Counted from the first letter of the stretch, positions 27 to 33,580 are shown. The stretch: DNA of 33,580 nucleotides from a bacterium (GCA_030591065.1 JAUVBU010000001.1:1-33580), one strand, 5' to 3'. Numbers and translations: made by a program. Notes: a model not told the origin generated them from the sequence alone.

Positions 27-110
27 TGCCGCGGGTGGGAGTCGAACCCACAAGCTGTTTCCAGCACAAACTTCTGAAGCTTGCGTGTCTACCAGTTTCA
101 CCACCGCGAC
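27..110 (-). tRNA. tRNA-Leu, anticodon CAG, type II with long variable arm; 3' CCA not encoded
   Basis: Reverse complement folds as a cloverleaf: 7-bp acceptor stem GTCGCGG/CCGCGGC (one G-U pair), D-arm, anticodon stem CAAGC/GTTTG with loop TTCAGAA giving anticodon CAG, long variable stem-loop, and T-arm GTGGG-TTCGACT-CCCAC. Folded by eye; no tRNA-finding program was run. Confidence 0.8.
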
Positions 111-2117: not shown

Positions 2118-4106
2118 CTATTTCCAAGCTCTTTTTGTGTGGATATACCAATTTCCGATTTCGCTAAATCTTTTTGATGAATCAGCAAGAATTCCGGTTG
2201 ATATTCCTTGAATTTCTTCTGAAACAAAATAACGATAATCTGGGGTGTAAAGAAAAATTGCAGGGCAATCTTCGAGGAGAAGATTTTGAAACTCTTCTAA
2301 GCTTTCTTGTCTTTCTGTTGCGTCCAAAGATTTTCTATTAGCTTCTAAAAGCTTATCACACTCTGTATTTTCATAATCAGTTAGGTTTAATCCGATTTCT
2401 CCCTTTTGAGAAGAGTGCCAAAAGGGGAATGGGTCTGGAATTAAACTTAAAATTTCTCCGAACAAAAGGGCTTCGAACTCTCTTTTACGAAGAATATCTC
2501 TCTTCATAATACTAATATCGAAAGTTTGAATTTCTACATCAACCCCTAATAATCCCCACTGGTTTTTTAAGAGAGTAGCTATTTCTATTAAAAGGGGCTG
2601 GTCAACTGTTAAGAGAGAAAATTTAAGAGGAATTTTTTCTTCTGGTTTTTCAAAGCAAACTTCGTTTAATTTTTCTCTTGTTTTACTTTTTACATCTCCA
2701 GTTCCCTGAGTTAAGCCAAAGGGACTTAAAACATCGCTACTATATTTTTCTTGAAATTTAATTACAGCGGCTTTGGTTTGGGAGCCAAAATATCCTGTTA
2801 TTTTTCCTTCTGGATAAATTTCTGGCCCACCAGCAGAAGGATTAGCTAAGCATTTTTGAAGTTCTGTCACCTCTGAACCTTTTGATCCAACAGATAAATT
2901 AGCTTCAAACTTAAAGGCTATATCTTTTTTTATAGTTTTTTCTCTAAAACCATTTTCTTGAAGTAAAAATCCAGCTTCTTCTAAGAGACTATTTGCTTCC
3001 TCAACATTATATTCATAAAGATATAAAGGGTCTTCAAAGCCATAAATATTAGGAAGAATAGGGGAATTTATAATTTTTCCTTGACCTAAAAGGATTGTTT
3101 CTAAAAGTTCTTTTTTATTTGTACCATAAGTTAAAGCCATTCTAACTTCTTTTTCAGCTAAAGCTTCAGCTTTATCTTCTGGAGCATCTTGGTTAAAAAA
3201 AACAGAAAAATATCTTGGTATGGAAAAAGAGTAAATATTTTCAGTTTCAGGAAGTGGACTAGTCGAATCTAGGGAGAATCCTTTGATTTTTCCTTCTTCA
3301 TAAGCTACTATTAGTTCTTCTTCTGTTTCAAAAAACAAGAAAGATATTTTAGAAAGATGGGGAGCTTCGTTGAAATATAATGGGTTTTTAACTAAATCTA
3401 AAGAAATAATCCTTCCTTCACTATCTTGAAATAAATCTTCTAATTTGTATGGCCCAGAACCTATAGGGTTAAGGTTCTTTCTTGTTAATAGAAGGTTTTT
3501 TAAAGAAACATCTTTCCAGATATGTTCTGGTATTATCTTCAAAGTACAGTTTTCTAAAAAGACAGAAGATGGATTTTTAAGAGTAAAACGTAAAACAAAG
3601 TCAGAAATTTTTATTATTTCCACCCCTAGCCACATTGGCCTTAAAGGGCTCCCTGCTTCAGAGTTTTTAATTGTTTCTATTGTGAAGATAATGTCATCTA
3701 CTGTTAGTGGCTCAGAATCTTCCCATAGAATATTTTTTTTTAAATGAAACTCGTAAATCTTTCCGTCTTCGAAAATATTATAATTTTTTGCTAAATCTAA
3801 TTTAAGCGTACCACTGGAATCATATTTCATTAAACCTGAGAAAATAAGTTCAGTTAGGTCTCGGTCTACGTCTGACGCGGCAGAGTAAAGGGGATTAATA
3901 AATAAAGGAGAACCTACTACTCCTTCTATATATGTTCCACCTGAGGTTGGGACAATCTTTGTTTTTTCAAAATAAAAATTACCTAAAAGAAAAGATAGGG
4001 ATGTGAAAAATAAAAAAGAAAGAAGAAGAAAAGAGAATCTTTCTCTCTTACCTAAAACTTTAAAAAATTGCCCCCACTGTTGTGTCGAAGGCCGTTTAGC
4101 AATCAT
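2118..4106 (-). CDS. membrane-anchored family-5 solute-binding protein (peptide/nickel-type SBP) with an inserted peptidoglycan-binding (PG_binding_1-like) domain
   Basis: 662 aa. N-terminal hydrophobic anchor FSFLLLSFLFFTSLSFLLG. SBP_bac_5-like core. The internal segment TELQKCLAN...GKITGYFGSQTKAAVIKFQEKY matches the PG_binding_1 pattern LQ..L....DG.FG..T..AV..FQ. No ABC permease or ATPase genes are adjacent. Confidence 0.6.
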   Translation of the reverse strand: MIAKRPSTQQWGQFFKVLGKRERFSFLLLSFLFFTSLSFLLGNFYFEKTKIVPTSGGTYIEGVVGSPLFINPLYSAASDVDRDLTELIFSGLMKYDSSGTLKLDLAKNYNIFEDGKIYEFHLKKNILWEDSEPLTVDDIIFTIETIKNSEAGSPLRPMWLGVEIIKISDFVLRFTLKNPSSVFLENCTLKIIPEHIWKDVSLKNLLLTRKNLNPIGSGPYKLEDLFQDSEGRIISLDLVKNPLYFNEAPHLSKISFLFFETEEELIVAYEEGKIKGFSLDSTSPLPETENIYSFSIPRYFSVFFNQDAPEDKAEALAEKEVRMALTYGTNKKELLETILLGQGKIINSPILPNIYGFEDPLYLYEYNVEEANSLLEEAGFLLQENGFREKTIKKDIAFKFEANLSVGSKGSEVTELQKCLANPSAGGPEIYPEGKITGYFGSQTKAAVIKFQEKYSSDVLSPFGLTQGTGDVKSKTREKLNEVCFEKPEEKIPLKFSLLTVDQPLLIEIATLLKNQWGLLGVDVEIQTFDISIMKRDILRKREFEALLFGEILSLIPDPFPFWHSSQKGEIGLNLTDYENTECDKLLEANRKSLDATERQESLEEFQNLLLEDCPAIFLYTPDYRYFVSEEIQGISTGILADSSKRFSEIGNWYIHTKRAWK

Positions 4107-13142: not shown

Positions 13143-13229
13143 GGAGGGGTTCCAGAGAGGCCGAATGGGCTTGCTTGGAAAGCAAGTGTATGGGAAACCG
13201 TACCGTGAGTTCGAATCTCACCCCCTCCG
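13143..13229 (+). tRNA. tRNA-Ser, anticodon GGA, type II; CCA not encoded
   Basis: Acceptor stem GGAGGGG/CCCCTCC, anticodon stem CTTGC/GCAAG with loop TTGGAAA, long variable stem-loop GTATGG-GAAA-CCGTAC, and T-arm GTGAG-TTCGAAT-CTCAC. The antisense 66-aa ORF 13070..13270 is an artefact of this tRNA. Confidence 0.8.
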
Positions 13230-23198: not shown

Positions 23199-23273
23199 TC
23201 CGGCGTGGCGCAATGGTAGCGCGGGTGCCTGTTAAGCACTAGGTTGTGGGTTCGAATCCTACCGCCGGAGCCA
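23199..23273 (+). tRNA. tRNA-Asn, anticodon GTT, with genomically encoded 3' CCA
   Basis: Acceptor TCCGGCG/CGCCGGA, D-arm GCGC-AATGGTA-GCGC, anticodon stem GGTGC/GCACT with loop CTGTTAA, T-arm GTGGG-TTCGAAT-CCTAC, discriminator G, then CCA. Confidence 0.85.
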
Positions 23274-28120: not shown

Positions 28121-28645
28121 ATGAAAAAAAGAATTAAAGTTTTAGTGGCTATATTAGTGACGCTTACAGTGTCGTCTTTTGCGTTAGCTCAAGGCAATCA
28201 ACAAGGTCAAGGAGAGCCACAACAAATCAACGCTGATAATAAAGGAATAGAGTTAGCATCTCAGAGTTTAAAGAGAGTGATTAGTCGTAATAATAACCCT
28301 GGGGTTGGTGAACAAATTAGAGCTATGGTTGAAAGTCACGAAGAAATACAAATAAGAACCAAAACAGCTTTGAATCAAATGAGCCAAAGAAGTAGTATGG
28401 TTAAATTTTTTATTGGACCTGATTATAAAAATGCTGGACAAGTAAGAAGTGATGTTATTGGTTTAAGAAACGACATTAAAAAATTAGAACAAATTAAGAA
28501 GGGATACTCTCCAGATGATACCGGAGATATCCAGGGAGCTATTGAAGAACTACAAGTTGAAGCTAACGAACTGGAAAATCAGCTTACGAAAGAATTGTCA
28601 GGTTTTAGTCTTTTTGGTTGGCTATCTAAGCTCTTAGCTAATTAA
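28121..28645 (+). CDS. secreted/periplasmic hypothetical protein (signal peptide [25 protein letters not shown]; helical, Q/N-rich)
   Basis: Typical Sec signal peptide. No recognisable catalytic motif. Ends 44 nt before rubrerythrin. Confidence 0.45.
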
Positions 28646-28689
28646 GGAGACAAGAAAACAAAAAGTTATATAAATTAAAATTAAAAAAG

Positions 28690-29274
28690 ATGAATGATAC
28701 TATTAAAAATTTAACCAAGGCTTTTATTGGCGAAAGTCAGGCTAGAAATAGGTATAGTTTTTATGCTAAAATAGCCAAAAAAGAAGGCTTTGAACAAATT
28801 GCCGAAATTTTTCTCATTACTGCCGAAAACGAAAAAGAGCACGCTAAAAGGTTGTTTGAACACATCAATCAGTTAAAAGAAAAGAGCGAGGATAATTTAG
28901 ATGAGATTGAAGTTACAGCTGTGGCTCCAACAATATTTAGTAATACGGTTGATAATCTTAGGTCTGCTATTTCTGGTGAGAATTATGAGCACACTCAAAT
29001 GTATCCAGAATTTGCTGACGTAGCAGAAAGTGAAGGTTTCCCCGAAATTGCCAAAAGATTAAGGGCTATTGCTATAGCTGAAAAACATCACGAAGAAAGA
29101 TTTCAAAAACTTTTAAAAGAAGTAGAAGCTGGTACAGTATTTAAAAAAGAAAAAGAAGTTTCATGGGTTTGTCGGGAGTGCGGTTATGTTCATTTTGGGA
29201 CAGAGGCACCAGAAAAGTGTCCATCTTGTGATCACCCCAGAAGCTTTTATCAAATTAAAGCTGAGGAATACTAA
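28690..29274 (+). CDS. rbr: rubrerythrin (ferritin-like diiron domain plus C-terminal rubredoxin-like CxxC...CxxC)
   Basis: [35 protein letters not shown], then [10 protein letters not shown]...KCPSCDHP. Confidence 0.9.
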
Positions 29275-29278
29275 AAAA

Positions 29279-29680
29279 ATGACTCAAAAAACTCAAATAT
29301 ATAAATGTAATATCTGTGGGAATATCGTGGAAATTTTAGACGTTGGGGCCGGACAACTTGTTTGTTGCAATCAACAAATGGAGTTATTAGAAGAAAAAAA
29401 CAAAGAAGAAGGCTTAGAAAAACATTTGCCCGTGATAGAAGAGTTGCCAGCCAATGCTTGTCAAGGGAAAGATGGAGTTAAAATAAAAGTGGGGGAAGTA
29501 GAGCACCCTATGGAGGAAAACCACTATATTGAGTGGATAGAAATTATTCCGGCAGATAATAAGAGAGGGAAGAAGTTTTTAAAACCAGGAGATAAGCCAG
29601 AAGTGGAATTTTATACTAGAAAGGAAGTTATTGGAGCTAGGGCCTATTGTAATGTTCATGGACTATGGAAGGTTGGCTAA
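29279..29680 (+). CDS. dfx: desulfoferrodoxin (2Fe superoxide reductase); true start MTQKTQ at 29279, not the extended ORF from 29186
   Basis: Desulforedoxin domain YKCNICGNIVEILDVGAGQLVCCNQQM and SOR domain HYIEWIEII...AYCNVHGLW. The extended ORF would overlap rubrerythrin by 89 nt in another frame. Confidence 0.85.
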   Translation: MTQKTQIYKCNICGNIVEILDVGAGQLVCCNQQMELLEEKNKEEGLEKHLPVIEELPANACQGKDGVKIKVGEVEHPMEENHYIEWIEIIPADNKRGKKFLKPGDKPEVEFYTRKEVIGARAYCNVHGLWKVG

Positions 29681-29812
29681 AAGTTATTAACTAAAAATTC
29701 TAATATTACTATTAGGGTTTATGATATAATTAAAAAATCTCTATTAGAGATTTTAATAAAAGCCGAAGAAATTAACATTTTTATATAAACTTAATTTAAG
29801 TAAGGTAAAAGC

Positions 29813-30814
29813 ATGAGTAAAAAGATAACTTTTTCAATCGTAGGATTAGTGGTAATTATTTTAGGCGTAGTTGCTTGGAATAACCTAAGCACAAAACCAG
29901 AAGATTCTTTTGTGGAAAAAAAAATGATAACATTTGCTGAGGGGGCTCTTACTGCTCCATGTTATCCAATCACTAAAGTTATAACAGACATTTGGAATAA
30001 ATATTTACCAAATATAGTTTCTACTCCAGAGCTTGACCCAGGTCGTTTAGTGGATAATTTAAAAAATATTGAAGAGGGAAAGTTTGATTTTAGGTGGACA
30101 ATGAGTAGTTTAGCTTTTTATAGCTACAATGGTCTAAAAATCGAAGATTTAAAAGGTAATCCAATGAAATCCTTAAGAACAATAGGTTCTTTTTGGAACC
30201 ATGAGCTTCACCTTATTGTTAGTGCAGACTCTTTAATCAATGACATCGCTGATTTTAAAGGTCAAAAAGTTAAAGTAGTTGTGCCTTCAGAGAAAGCATG
30301 GACGGCTATAACAGCAAAAGAGCTATTTGGAATATATGGAATATCTCCAGATTTAGTTGAAATAATTTCTGTTCCACTTAGTGAAATCGCTGGATCGTTA
30401 AAGGCAAAAGACGCTGATATTGCTGTTCTTGCTATATCGGTAAAGTCTATGCAATCAAATATTTTTAAAAAAGCAGAAGGTTTAAGATTTTTAGCATTAA
30501 GTCAGGAAATTATTAAAAAAACAACAGAAAAGCTTCCATATTATGTCGAGGGGTCAATTCCTAAGAATACTTATCTCAACCAAGTAAACGATATAAACGG
30601 AATTGTAATAAAAGGAATTATAGTTTGCAGAGAAGACATGGATTCAGACTTAGTTTATACTTTAACAAAAACTATATTTGACCACGTTGACGAGATAAAA
30701 GAAGCAACCCCATTAGTAGAAGATATGTTTTTAGAAACAGCAGTAACGGGCCTAGCTATTCCTTTACATCCTGGAGCTGCAAAATATTATGCTGAAATGG
30801 GATTAACTCCTTAA
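29813..30814 (+). CDS. TAXI-family (TRAP-associated) periplasmic solute-binding protein, N-terminally membrane-anchored
   Basis: Signal-anchor MSKKITFSIVGLVVIILGVVAW. The C-terminal LAIPLHPGAAKYYAEMGL is the hallmark TAXI ending (PLHPGA.KYY). No TRAP permease is nearby. Confidence 0.6.
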   Translation: MSKKITFSIVGLVVIILGVVAWNNLSTKPEDSFVEKKMITFAEGALTAPCYPITKVITDIWNKYLPNIVSTPELDPGRLVDNLKNIEEGKFDFRWTMSSLAFYSYNGLKIEDLKGNPMKSLRTIGSFWNHELHLIVSADSLINDIADFKGQKVKVVVPSEKAWTAITAKELFGIYGISPDLVEIISVPLSEIAGSLKAKDADIAVLAISVKSMQSNIFKKAEGLRFLALSQEIIKKTTEKLPYYVEGSIPKNTYLNQVNDINGIVIKGIIVCREDMDSDLVYTLTKTIFDHVDEIKEATPLVEDMFLETAVTGLAIPLHPGAAKYYAEMGLTP

Positions 30815-30830
30815 TTAAGGTTTTTACGCT

Positions 30831-32099
30831 ATGGAAATAAAGTTATCGTTAAGAAGAAAGGCTCCTATATTTGCTTTGGGATTAGTAATAATACCCATGT
30901 TAGCAATAAGTTTGTTTTTTTATGCTAGAACCCGCGAAGTGTTAATGGAAACTATTTCTGTTAATAACACGTCTTTTACGTTAAGTGCAGCGAGGGGGAT
31001 AAGGGATCAAACTCTAAGTTTTATAAATATTTTAGAGTCTTCTGTTCCCAGCATTCTTATGGCTGAAACGGAGACAGAAAAAAAAGAACTACTAATCGGA
31101 TTAAAAAAAGGGTTTGTTTCTATTAGTTCATTATCTATTTTAAATAGTAACGGAAAAGAAATAATTCGCTCAGACGATAAGGAGCTGAAAGATTGTGAGA
31201 ATAATCCAGAATTCTATATAGCAAAAGAGGAAGGGTTTTATTTATCTTGGTTTGAATACAATAAAGAACAAGAATTATCTTCGATTATTATCTCTGTTCC
31301 TATGTGGGAAGAAAATAACTTAAAAGGAGTTTTGAAAGCAGAAATCTTTCTTTACGAAATTTGGAATCAAGCTATAATTTCCTCTCTTTCTTTGAACGAT
31401 AATTGTTATATTGTTACCCAAGAAGGAGATTTTGTTGCAAAAATTATTACTGCGAATGAAAGTTTTGTATCTCCAGACTTAGAAGAAATTGCTATAACAA
31501 GCGCTTTAAATAAAAGATTGTTTACCGAAGAGAGAGAGACAGAGTCTGGTGAAATGTTAATTATTGCTAGTCCTATTCCTGTTCTTAATTGGGAATTAGT
31601 AGTATTTCGACCAACATCTGAAATTTATGAACCAATAATTAAGATTAGAAACGAAGTTATTGTAATCGGCTTTTTTAGCTTAGTGTTAGTTTCTGTTGCA
31701 GCTCTTTTGTTTTCTAAAAAAATTGTTGAACCTATTGATAGACTCTACAGGGGAGCAAAAATAATAGGTAGTGGTAACTTAGATCATAGGGTTGATATTA
31801 AGAGTGGAGATGAAATTGAAGAGCTAGCAAAAGAGTTTAATAATATGGTCGATGGTTTAAAAGTTTCTCAAGCAGCCCTAGAAGAAGAAAGAGCTCTCTT
31901 AGAAATAAAAGTCGGAGCAAGAACAAGAGAGTTAGAAGAGTTTACCGAAAGTTTAGAAGAAAAAATTAAAGAGAGAACCAAAGAGCTTGAAAAAAAGCTT
32001 GTTGAGCTTGAAACCTTTAGAAAACTAACTATTGATAGGGAATTAAAAATGATTCTATTAAAAAAAGAGATTAAGAAACTAAAAGAGAGAGATTATTAA
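30831..32099 (+). CDS. membrane signal transducer: TM - periplasmic Cache-like domain (~240 aa) - TM - HAMP - coiled coil, with no kinase, MCP, GGDEF or other output domain
   Basis: TM1 at residues ~12-31 and TM2 VIVIGFFSLVLVSVAALLF. HAMP: IVEPIDRLYRGAKIIGSGNLDHRVDIKSGDEIEELAKEFNNMVDGLK. Then ~70 aa of heptad-rich EELEK sequence to the stop. No H-box or ATP-binding motifs are present. Confidence 0.6.
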   Translation: MEIKLSLRRKAPIFALGLVIIPMLAISLFFYARTREVLMETISVNNTSFTLSAARGIRDQTLSFINILESSVPSILMAETETEKKELLIGLKKGFVSISSLSILNSNGKEIIRSDDKELKDCENNPEFYIAKEEGFYLSWFEYNKEQELSSIIISVPMWEENNLKGVLKAEIFLYEIWNQAIISSLSLNDNCYIVTQEGDFVAKIITANESFVSPDLEEIAITSALNKRLFTEERETESGEMLIIASPIPVLNWELVVFRPTSEIYEPIIKIRNEVIVIGFFSLVLVSVAALLFSKKIVEPIDRLYRGAKIIGSGNLDHRVDIKSGDEIEELAKEFNNMVDGLKVSQAALEEERALLEIKVGARTRELEEFTESLEEKIKERTKELEKKLVELETFRKLTIDRELKMILLKKEIKKLKERDY

Positions 32100-32100
32100 T

Positions 32101-32700
32101 ATGGATCAACCAATCTCAAAAGAAGAGCTAGATAAAGCCTCTTTGGTTATAGGGGAACTAAGGGGATTAGGAATGAAAAATGAACTGGAATTTATTCTCA
32201 AAGAAGAAGGTCCGGAAGGATTAGAAAGGCTTGAGCAAACAATGGAGCAGTTGGGTTTTCCTATAAAGTATAAGGAGATAAAAGCAATGAATTTTTATCC
32301 ACTTAGCACGTACGTCGTTACTCTATTAGTAATGGACAATCTTTTTCATTACAACAATGAAAAGATTCAGGAAAAAGGAGAATTTTTAACTAAAGTTTCT
32401 TTAGTGGTAAGACTTTATTTGAAAAACTTTGTTTCTCTTGAGAAAGTAGCAAAAGATGTCTCAAAAATGTGGAGGAAATATTACACCATAGGAGACTTTA
32501 AAATAATGGAACTTGACGAGGAGAAAAGATGTGGAATAATAAGGCTCGAAAATTTTTATCTTCACCCTTTCCACATAGAAACTCTTAAAGGATATTTTCG
32601 GGCTATAGTTAAAATGGTAGTTAAAAGTGAGGTTGTTTGCGAAGAACGAAAAGAGTTTGATGGAGACGAAAAAAACCACGAATTTTCACTTAAATGGTAA
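32101..32700 (+). CDS. cytoplasmic small protein, possibly V4R / XylR_N-like ligand-binding fold; translationally coupled to the transducer (stop and start 1 nt apart)
   Basis: The C-terminal RCGIIRLENFYLHPFHIETLKGYFRAIVKMVVKSEVVCEERKEFDGDEKNHEFSL resembles the V4R pattern G.....E.......GY..G......V.V.E..C...GD....F.I. Low-confidence similarity by eye. Confidence 0.3.
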   Translation: MDQPISKEELDKASLVIGELRGLGMKNELEFILKEEGPEGLERLEQTMEQLGFPIKYKEIKAMNFYPLSTYVVTLLVMDNLFHYNNEKIQEKGEFLTKVSLVVRLYLKNFVSLEKVAKDVSKMWRKYYTIGDFKIMELDEEKRCGIIRLENFYLHPFHIETLKGYFRAIVKMVVKSEVVCEERKEFDGDEKNHEFSLKW

Positions 32701-32864
32701 GGCTTTATTTTCTTAGTTTGAGGTTAAAATAGTTATATTAATCGCCTTCACTTTTTCTCAAAGCTATATGATTAATTTTAAGCTTTGGTAAATATGGGCG
32801 ATTTTTTATTGGAAAGAGATATAAGTTGATGGAATAAAAAGTATTAGTTTGTTGTAGTAATATT

Positions 32865-33437
32865 ATGGAGCAAAGAAAATCAAAAAAATCTGATGAAGAA
32901 ATTGTTGCTCTAGTTCAGGCTGGAGATATTGATTTTTTTGAATTTTTAATTAATCGTTATAAAGAAAAAATTAAACGTTATGCCAGAAAATTTCTTTCTG
33001 AATCGGAAGACATAAATGACATTGTCCAGGAAATTTTTATAAAAGCCTATATAAACATTCAAAGCTTTGATATAAAAAGAAAGTTTTCTTCTTGGCTTTA
33101 CAGGATTGCTCACAACGAACTTGTTAACGCTTTAAAAAAGAAAAAGAAAAACATTTTACCCTTGTTTGAGTTAGATACTTTTCTTCCCCGTAAACTTCAA
33201 GACGATTCTTTTCGGAAAAGTATAGATCGTAAGGATACAAAAAAAATGATTGATAGGTGTCTTGATAGGGTGGAGCCGAAATATCGCGAACCAATTATTC
33301 TTTATTACTTAGAAGAATTATCTTATCAGGAAATTTCGGAAGTGATGCGGATACCTATTTCAACTGTTGGAACTAGAATAAAAAGAGGGAAAAAAAACAT
33401 GAAATCTATTTTTAAAAAACTAGGATATAGTTTATGA
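32865..33437 (+). CDS. ECF-subfamily sigma-70 factor (regions 2 and 4)
   Basis: DIVQEIFIKAYINIQSFDIKRKFSSWLYRIAHNELVN (region 2) and YQEISEVMRIPISTVGTRIKRGKKNMK (region 4 HTH); 190 aa; TGA stop. Confidence 0.8.
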   Translation: MEQRKSKKSDEEIVALVQAGDIDFFEFLINRYKEKIKRYARKFLSESEDINDIVQEIFIKAYINIQSFDIKRKFSSWLYRIAHNELVNALKKKKKNILPLFELDTFLPRKLQDDSFRKSIDRKDTKKMIDRCLDRVEPKYREPIILYYLEELSYQEISEVMRIPISTVGTRIKRGKKNMKSIFKKLGYSL

Positions 33438-33580
33438 ATAACCAATTAGAAAAAAACCATATTACCGAGAAAATACTCGGTAAGATAAAAACTGAAAAAA
33501 TTAAAATGAAGCCCAAAATATACTTTATTCTAAGGATGGCTTTGTTGGTTTTGGGAACCTTAACTTTAGCTTCTTTTATT
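33434..33580 (+). CDS. probable anti-sigma factor (partial, runs off the window end); ATGA start/stop overlap with the ECF sigma gene
   Basis: MNNQLEKNHITEKILGKIKTEKIKMKPKIYFILRMALLVLGTLTLASFI is a short cytoplasmic segment followed by a TM helix, the usual layout of ECF anti-sigma factors. Position and coupling support the call. Confidence 0.35.
   Translation, partial: MNNQLEKNHITEKILGKIKTEKIKMKPKIYFILRMALLVLGTLTLASFI

Follow-up and report, generated by a model that had tools for sequence, protein, structure and literature searches.

Positions 29,813 to 33,580 of a 33,580-nt stretch of bacterial DNA (GCA_030591065.1, JAUVBU010000001.1:1-33580; the whole stretch is referred to here as the window) carry a row of five co-directional genes. 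The first three, encoding a membrane-anchored TAXI-family solute-binding protein (SBP), a two-transmembrane (TM) transducer with a double-Cache (dCache) region and a HAMP domain, and a soluble protein of 199 amino acids (aa), are, on balance, best read as a kinase-less, SBP-dependent three-gene input module typical of Patescibacteria, acting by contact on the 199-aa protein and/or on a soluble PAS kinase. The module is apparently an undescribed but real variant of SBP-dependent (three-component-like) signalling, and its parts belong to known superfamilies (TAXI, dCache, HAMP, V4R/H-NOX and, for the adjoining sigma factor, ECF). The triad probably passes signals to separately encoded kinases, not to the adjoining sigma factor gene. 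All five open reading frames (ORFs) of the original prediction, which was made from the sequence of the window, are present, and those of the module are arranged as follows (homologous loci are designated below by L numbers):

29813..30814 (+), gene for a membrane-anchored TAXI solute-binding protein of 333 aa (TIGR02122, NMT1_3), the proposed extracytoplasmic ligand receptor of the module
30831..32099 (+), gene for a two-TM dCache-HAMP-coiled-coil transducer of 422 aa (HAMP, structure model, Foldseek, homologs)
30933..31625 (+), extracytoplasmic double-Cache region of the transducer, residues ~35-265 (model secondary structure, Foldseek)
31710..31859 (+), HAMP domain of the transducer, residues 294-343 (PF00672, 2.9e-13)
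31899..32090 (+), conserved C-terminal coiled-coil (CC) module of the transducer, residues 357-420 (invariant residues in alignment)
32101..32700 (+), gene for a soluble stand-alone protein of 199 aa, H-NOX-like in fold and of the V4R type in its C-terminal half
29737..32040 (no strand), segment absent from a relative, L006 (blastn)

A transducer without an output domain

The HAMP domain of the transducer lies directly after the second TM helix (TM2) and is recognized with 50.3 bits, against a cut-off of 25. The dCache_1 model (PF02743) gives 33.2 bits, which is below its gathering score of 45, and homologs of the transducer carry precomputed matches to it. An AlphaFold model of the monomer (built on 22 homologs, pLDDT 81) displays a TM and stalk helix (residues 7-77), two PAS-like alpha/beta modules (81-185 and 191-261), TM2 and the HAMP domain, and an unbroken helix from residue 328 to residue 420; it thus has the long stalk helix and the two tandem PAS-like modules between two TM helices of the dCache architecture. 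In Foldseek, the model matches the dCache ligand-binding domains of Mlp24, DctB, KinD, PctA and Tlp3 (E 1e-9 to 1e-11, target TM-score 0.65-0.79). No output domain (HisKA, HATPase, MCPsignal, GGDEF, cyclase or other) was detected in this protein with Pfam or NCBIfam, and the NCBIfam kinase models touch it in the TM2-HAMP region only. There is no match to MCPsignal (PF00015), the helix following the HAMP domain is only about 90 residues long, and the alignment of the C-terminal module contains no conserved histidine. Pfam/NCBIfam, the AlphaFold model and Foldseek agree with the predicted layout of two TM helices, a Cache-like domain, a HAMP domain and a coiled coil, with no output domain.

A search of 5.8 billion proteins yielded, at E < 1e-80, about 45 full-length homologs of the transducer (388-461 aa, 42-86% identity), all with dCache and/or HAMP only and, where named, all from Patescibacteria. 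Where homologs have names, these put the lineage of the window in the Patescibacteria (CPR), close to Nealsonbacteria, Gribaldobacteria and Parcubacteria. Output domains first appear among the homologs in dCache-HAMP-HisKA-HATPase kinases of 620-685 aa, with 25-29% identity. It had been conceded at the outset that the transducer could be a truncated histidine kinase or methyl-accepting chemotaxis protein (MCP), or that it could carry an output domain after all; this is not so in any of the ~45 homologs, and truncation is ruled out by their conserved output-less length, together with the invariant residues of the C-terminus.

The C-terminal coiled-coil module

The C-terminus of the transducer is among the best-conserved parts of the homolog alignment. 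The CC module consists of two (A/E)RTxEL signalling-helix repeats followed by ELETFRKLTIDRELKMILLKKEIKKLKE, with the tail consensus ELE(K/R)Fx(K/R)L(T/A)(V/I)GRELKM(I/V)ELKKEIxxLK after the repeats, and residues L386, L393, E394, R403, E404, M407, L410 and K411 are invariant. It is covered by no Pfam model, and a literature search with its motif strings found no relevant paper. In the fetched loci, 45 non-redundant proteins end in this same module, with 1-26 residues following it, behind different N-terminal inputs: dCache-HAMP, TM-HAMP (313-349 aa), PAS only (189-198 aa), HisKA_7TM-PAS, 6TM_PilS and REC-PAS. A database-wide search with a profile of the tail matched 1848 proteins at E <= 1e-3. 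The CC module sits where sensors of these types normally carry the kinase core, and it is the only candidate for an output element in the transducer.

Many of the best matches to the tail profile are very short (62-121 aa, for example P0173, P0189, P0257 and P0226), and some of these lie on contigs that are long, so that the module may also exist in free-standing form; the other short matches are probably fragments at contig ends. One locus, L117 (GCA_030638505.1, 1543-12528), contains five copies of the 199-aa protein family, a PilS-type 6TM sensor ending in the CC module and a STAS protein. Near this sensor, a gene for a sensor-less HisKA-HATPase core of 234 aa and a gene for a receiver (REC) protein are inserted between pilB and pilC, an arrangement suggestive of a split PilS-like kinase that controls type IV pili.

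The solute-binding protein and its exchange in place

The product of the first gene is a membrane-anchored TAXI-family SBP, as had been proposed: it matches TIGR02122 (3e-59, 200 bits against a cut-off of 84, NCBIfam) and NMT1_3 (2e-45, 156 bits against a cut-off of 27, Pfam), and its N-terminus reads as a single hydrophobic anchor. TAXI proteins are classified as subunits of TRAP transporters, and the absence of a TRAP permease noted in the original prediction is borne out, there being no DctM/DctQ-type gene among the 31 larger ORFs of the window (about 110 aa or longer). No TRAP permease gene was found in the flanks of the TAXI genes of L008, L010 and L012, and no transporter or permease gene adjoins the SBP gene in any of the homologous loci examined.

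The SBP position in these loci is taken by TAXI proteins (the window, L008-L012, L093-L095 and L109), Bmp/PnrA proteins (L096-L108 and L110-L116) or an SBP_bac_8 protein (L015). Additional SBP-sensor pairs are present in L106 and L109, with SBP_bac_3-like (by sequence inspection) and ABC_sub_bind (Pfam) proteins. L010, which has a TAXI protein, and L102, L110 and L111, which have Bmp proteins, occupy the same chromosomal position, the SBP gene being directly preceded by one for a 5'-3' exonuclease (before which the three Bmp-type loci have an additional REC gene), and L010 and L102 also have a common downstream flank containing holA and a Mur ligase gene. Since the flanks are the same and the SBP families differ, the SBP has been exchanged in place. 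In a search with a TAXI profile, the distant dCache-HAMP kinases found in other phyla (L020-L092) showed no TAXI gene upstream, and the pairing with TAXI was therefore not inherited from those kinases.

The family of the 199-aa protein

The 199-aa protein of the window has no family match of its own, V4R (PF02830) included. Its close relatives do: among 27 homologs found in a first search, almost all of 199-203 aa, 21 match Pfam V4R at residues ~158-198 (best 2.9e-9), so that the V4R-like C-terminus that had been proposed is correct at the level of the family, although not detectable in the window copy itself. A profile search of 1.84 billion cluster representatives extended the family to 907 clusters (50% identity) at E <= 1e-3, of which 296 are at E <= 1e-30. 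Nearly all members are 186-221 aa long, and the only longer ones are tandem duplications, such as two representatives of 405 and 410 aa that are tandem fusions.

The fold of the whole protein is H-NOX-like, with BcsD, the N-terminal domain of VirS, YslB and TRAPP Bet3-type proteins taking an in-between position in the comparison. A profile search of PDB sequences with the family gave no match, and an hhalign comparison with Tt H-NOX (sequence verified) gave an insignificant probability of 0.3; the link with H-NOX is thus at the level of the fold only. H193, in the last strand, is the only histidine conserved in the 27-member alignment, from which the Y-x-S-x-R motif and a conserved proximal heme histidine are absent, and the canonical heme ligands are accordingly missing. 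The candidate metal-site residues of most members are instead of the V4R type, with C159 in 47 of 62 sequences, C185 in 45 and H193 in 54, and with E182 nearly invariant. The spacing C-x25-C-x7-H equals that of C151, C177 and C185 in DmpR, with a glutamate in between, the zinc site of DmpR being composed of C151, E172, C177 and C185 (PMC7264223). The 199-aa protein is better described as a heme-less member of the H-NOX/V4R superfamily. A literature search found no relevant paper on V4R or H-NOX proteins in Patescibacteria.

The state of the site differs with gene context. The C-C-C-H set (residues 159, 180, 185 and 193) is intact in almost all copies that do not adjoin a CC-module sensor, and it is degenerate in many of the copies that follow one: I-C-E-H in the clade of the window, (L/F)-K-E-H in L102, L110, L111, L112 and L116, L-L-T-H in L010 and R-V-S-H in the last copy of L106 and L108. 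The window copy, with I159 and E185, does not have the DmpR-type Cys/Glu/Cys/Cys site and, to judge from these residues, has probably lost metal binding. Tandem arrays of three to six paralogs per genome occur in L004 (3858-8600), L006 (1543-11344) and L118 (6001-9176).

Conservation of the triad and its neighbourhoods

The triad of SBP, transducer and 199-aa protein is conserved as a neighbourhood, a point on which the original prediction had been made to depend. L008, L009 and L093 (85-86% receptor identity) have the triad with rubrerythrin/desulfoferrodoxin genes upstream and ECF genes downstream, as in the window. In L012 (66% receptor identity) it has different flanks and no sigma factor, and L010 and L011 (43%) carry it on a contig of 463 kb. 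In some 15 other loci, a homologous transducer is preceded by a Bmp/PnrA-type SBP, or by SBP_bac_8 in L015. The gene directly after a CC-module sensor belongs to the 199-aa family in 21 of the 38 non-redundant cases (plus L007) with enough downstream sequence.

In L010, L018, L100, L102, L103, L110 and L116, the small protein is followed by a PAS-PAS-HisKA-HATPase kinase of 520-560 aa and then, where the contig continues, by two single-domain REC proteins. In L015, L098, L107 and L109, it is followed by further copies of itself, a PAS-CC protein and a stand-alone FIST protein. The same layout exists outside Patescibacteria, in a metagenome-assembled genome from Gammaproteobacteria (L042, CAZNEH010000001, 1526-9295), where genes for a STAS protein, a HAMP-PAS-CC protein, a dCache-HAMP-CC protein, a hemerythrin of 141 aa, a HAMP-PAS kinase of 1151 aa and two REC proteins follow one another, with the hemerythrin in the place of the H-NOX/V4R-like small protein.

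FIST_N+FIST_C proteins (~393 aa) and PAS-CC proteins (~194 aa) recur after small-protein genes in L015, L016, L098 (5281-6462), L107 and L109, and a stand-alone PocR sensor domain (185 aa) is encoded upstream in L102. These loci are collections of single-domain sensors.

The adjoining sigma factor gene

Two further genes complete the row of five in the window:

32865..33437 (+), gene for an ECF-type sigma factor of 190 aa (Sigma70_r2, r4_2, TIGR02937)
33434..33580 (+), 5' part of a gene for a membrane protein, a putative anti-sigma factor (from the sequence; cut by the window end)

The sigma factor gene lies 164 nt after the gene for the 199-aa protein, and its assignment to the ECF type is confirmed by Sigma70_r2 (68 bits), r4_2 (61 bits) and TIGR02937 (109 bits against 43). 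The last ORF begins at 33434 and shares 4 nt (ATGA) with the end of the sigma gene, and only 49 of its codons are inside the window. Its ortholog in L008 is a multi-TM protein of 251 aa, with no recognisable Pfam domain among precomputed matches. An overlapping membrane protein is, then, encoded here as had been proposed, but its designation as an anti-sigma factor comes from its position only.

An ECF sigma gene adjoins the triad only in L008, L009 and L093, which is to say at a receptor identity of at least 85%. It is absent from the triads of L010, L012 and the Bmp-type loci; at the sigma position, L010 and the Bmp-type loci carry either a kinase together with receivers or PAS-CC and FIST proteins, the PAS-HisKA-HATPase kinase standing there in all seven of the kinase-bearing loci listed above. 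These neighbourhoods rule out the sigma factor as a target of the triad in the sense of a conserved feature, and the sigma/anti-sigma pair is an unrelated, lineage-specific neighbour outside the conserved module.

Proposed mechanism and alternatives

In the scheme that we favour, the membrane-tethered TAXI protein would capture an extracellular ligand and would dock on the double-Cache domain of the transducer, as LuxP does on LuxQ or HptA on HptS. The signal would then cross the membrane and pass via the HAMP domain into the long signalling-helix coiled coil, which ends in the conserved module of ~45-65 aa. This module may act by protein-protein contact, its partner being the H-NOX/V4R-fold protein of 199 aa, a soluble PAS histidine kinase with a gene of its own, or both; in distant relatives, the partner kinase would be the one encoded directly after the triad, with its two single-domain receiver proteins. 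We infer all of these physical interactions, and also the identity of the downstream kinase in the genome of the window. For the 199-aa protein, the likeliest role on the signal path is that of a co-sensor or an adaptor, not of a terminal output. An adaptor role is favoured by the loss of metal-site residues in the sensor-adjacent copies and by the start of its gene 1 nt past the transducer stop codon; a co-sensor role is favoured by the orphan copies, by the deletion in L006 and by the hemerythrin analogue in L042. The packing of H-NOX against a coiled coil in soluble guanylate cyclase and the pairing of H-NOX with HnoK are precedents for the role of the small protein.

Several observations weigh against this scheme. 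In this lineage the triad has no kinase gene close by (none in the 8 kb that flank it on each side in L008), and 17 of the 38 CC-module sensors are not followed by a gene of the 199-aa family. This family extends well beyond the triad: orphan and tandem copies are numerous (L001, L004, L006, L117 and L118), and in L001 (a complete genome of 689 kb), L004, L118 and L119 such copies have no CC-module gene nearby; among the best 150 of its 907 clusters, none showed a fusion with a HAMP, coiled-coil or kinase domain. L006 (GCA_030622665.1) encodes a 199-aa protein 86% identical to that of the window and is collinear with the window on both sides, but it has lost the TAXI gene together with almost all of the transducer gene: in blastn, it matches window positions 28424-29736 and 32041-32889 at 83-85% and nothing in between, and the last ~17-19 codons of the transducer remain before an intact 199-aa gene. 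The deletion junction (L006 7880-8000) lies in a short A/T-rich repeat, AATTAAAAA. Since the SBP and transducer were deleted and the 199-aa gene was kept, the small protein is not strictly tied to the transducer. Finally, the distal Cache module is highly conserved in the alignment across clades paired with different SBP families, and it could for this reason bind a ligand of its own.

Stand-alone H-NOX proteins regulate kinases of the HnoK type, and the 199-aa protein might likewise be an independent cytoplasmic sensor of a small molecule or metal that regulates a histidine kinase directly, adjoining the transducer because both feed the same kinase and having no contact with it. This alternative, which we regard as rather unlikely, draws on the H-NOX-like fold, on the Cys/Glu/Cys/His pattern of the V4R type present in most members with the spacing of the DmpR zinc site (PMC7264223), on the position of the gene directly upstream of a PAS kinase in eight loci (L010, L018, L100, L102, L110, L116, L106 and L108), and on the hemerythrin at the equivalent position in L042; the many copies unlinked to CC-module genes and the copy that outlived the transducer in L006 point the same way. 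In the window, L008, L012 and L098, however, the small protein comes after a CC-module sensor and no kinase is encoded close by, and the spacing of 1 nt suggests co-translation with the transducer. The contrast between degenerate sensor-following copies and orphans that are almost all C-C-C-H also fits a change from ligand sensor to adaptor. In the version given by the original prediction, the 199-aa protein is the output that the transducer recruits, and the adjoining ECF sigma/anti-sigma pair is possibly controlled in this way. The five genes are indeed co-directional, and their order recurs in L008, L009 and L093, but these are such close relatives (L008 has 91% nucleotide identity over the block) that the shared order has little independent weight. 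With a triad lacking the sigma gene in L012, other genes at its position in L010 and all Bmp-type loci, the 164-nt gap before it in the window and a promoter/terminator scan that was uninformative (promoter-like matches were fewer than in shuffled sequences, and no terminator was found in the intergenic gaps of the block), control of the sigma factor appears very unlikely, and this part of the prediction is not upheld.

The least probable explanation, to which we give very little credence, is that the TAXI protein is an ordinary subunit of a TRAP permease encoded elsewhere and the transducer a functionless remnant of a degenerate kinase or chemoreceptor. TIGR02122 does describe TRAP subunits, only 33.6 kb of the genome is visible, and the related lineage L006 has lost both genes. 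Decay is nevertheless difficult to reconcile with an output-less architecture and invariant residues, tail included, conserved down to 42% identity across many lineages, and a transport role with an SBP-transducer pairing that persists while the SBP family changes and with the lack of an adjacent permease gene in every locus examined.

A broader proposal would extend the favoured contact scheme beyond this locus. Patescibacteria and some other bacteria might use a split signalling architecture, not described so far, in which many kinase-less sensors (SBP-coupled dCache-HAMP, TM-HAMP, PAS, 7TM and PilS-type) with a common CC docking or output module, and adaptors or co-sensors from the large stand-alone H-NOX/V4R-fold family, have as their common target a small number of soluble or minimal histidine-kinase cores. 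We put this forward tentatively, as a possibility that is open to considerable doubt; if true, it would be a way of keeping many inputs in a very small genome.

Comparison with known systems

To our knowledge, almost nothing is known about how the ultrasmall, host-dependent Patescibacteria sense their surroundings. The nearest described arrangements are those in which an SBP gene stands beside a two-TM receptor with double-Cache/PAS domains, without linkage to a transporter, as for LuxP-LuxQ, HptA-HptS, NspS-MbaA and BasB-BasT (PMC8050422). These receptors have a kinase, GGDEF/EAL or MCP output, whereas the receptor of the window ends in the CC module only, and the TAXI family, to which the SBP of the window belongs, is not among the examples of SBP-dependent dCache receptors listed (PMC8050422). 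Like the arrangement proposed here, GlnH-GlnX-PknG of Actinobacteria (PMC8050422; PMC9769921) combines an SBP with a transmembrane transducer that has no output domain and with a cytoplasmic kinase encoded separately. It is the only characterised SBP-stimulated Ser/Thr kinase system (PMC8050422), and a literature search found no output-less SBP-coupled transducer other than GlnX. Unlike the transducer of the window, GlnX has periplasmic domains made of four-helix bundles, no HAMP domain and no conserved C-terminal module, and its partner is a Ser/Thr kinase, with no H-NOX/V4R-like protein in the system.

The components also differ from their better-known relatives. From stand-alone H-NOX proteins and the H-NOX domain of soluble guanylate cyclase, the 199-aa family is set apart by the lack of sequence similarity, proximal histidine and Y-x-S-x-R motif, and by the V4R-type Cys/Cys/His residues of most members. 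In contrast to V4R domains (DmpR/XylR/MopR/PoxR and archaeal MJ1460), the 199-aa protein is stand-alone rather than fused to an AAA+ activator and has an extra N-terminal helical subdomain that gives the whole protein its H-NOX look; the window copy, moreover, lacks two metal ligands and is not matched by V4R. The SBP is a clear TAXI protein, above the TIGR02122 cut-off, like those of TAXI-TRAP transporters, but there is no DctQ/DctM-type gene in the window or beside the homologous TAXI genes examined, and the TAXI gene is paired with a receptor.

No curated model and no description were found for the output-less architecture with the CC module, for the stand-alone H-NOX/V4R-fold family or for their linkage with interchangeable SBPs. 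The locus therefore points to two sizeable families without a curated model (the CC module, with 1848 matches, and the H-NOX/V4R-fold family, with 907 clusters) and to a wiring of SBPs to signalling that dispenses with an enzymatic receptor. If the trans-acting arrangement is correct, it would be a second and far more widespread example beside GlnH-GlnX-PknG, and would account for the retention of several inputs by tiny genomes that have few kinases; the module may represent a principle of wiring that is general among reduced genomes. Because the components are small and either soluble or readily truncated, binding tests are feasible although these organisms have not been cultured.

Other features of the window

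The genome of the window is of low GC content (about 31%). The remaining larger ORFs scanned encode housekeeping proteins, including UvrA, GroEL, DnaG, RpoD, pyruvate kinase and glycosyltransferases; pyruvate kinase and rubrerythrin were identified via the precomputed hits of their L008 orthologs. Rfam matches are limited to three tRNAs (27-110, minus strand; 13143-13229, plus strand; 23199-23270, plus strand), and the same scan found no riboswitch upstream of the five-gene block.

Directly upstream of the block lie the genes for rubrerythrin (28690-29274) and desulfoferrodoxin, an oxidative-stress pair in the neighbourhood of a protein with a gas-sensor-like fold; both genes are kept at this place in L006 and L008. 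The true start of desulfoferrodoxin is at 29279, giving a protein of 133 aa; the ORF of 164 aa listed from 29186 overlaps rubrerythrin. Elsewhere in the window (2118-4106, minus strand), a 662-aa binding protein of the SBP_bac_5 (peptide/nickel) type contains an inserted peptidoglycan-binding domain, PG_binding_1.

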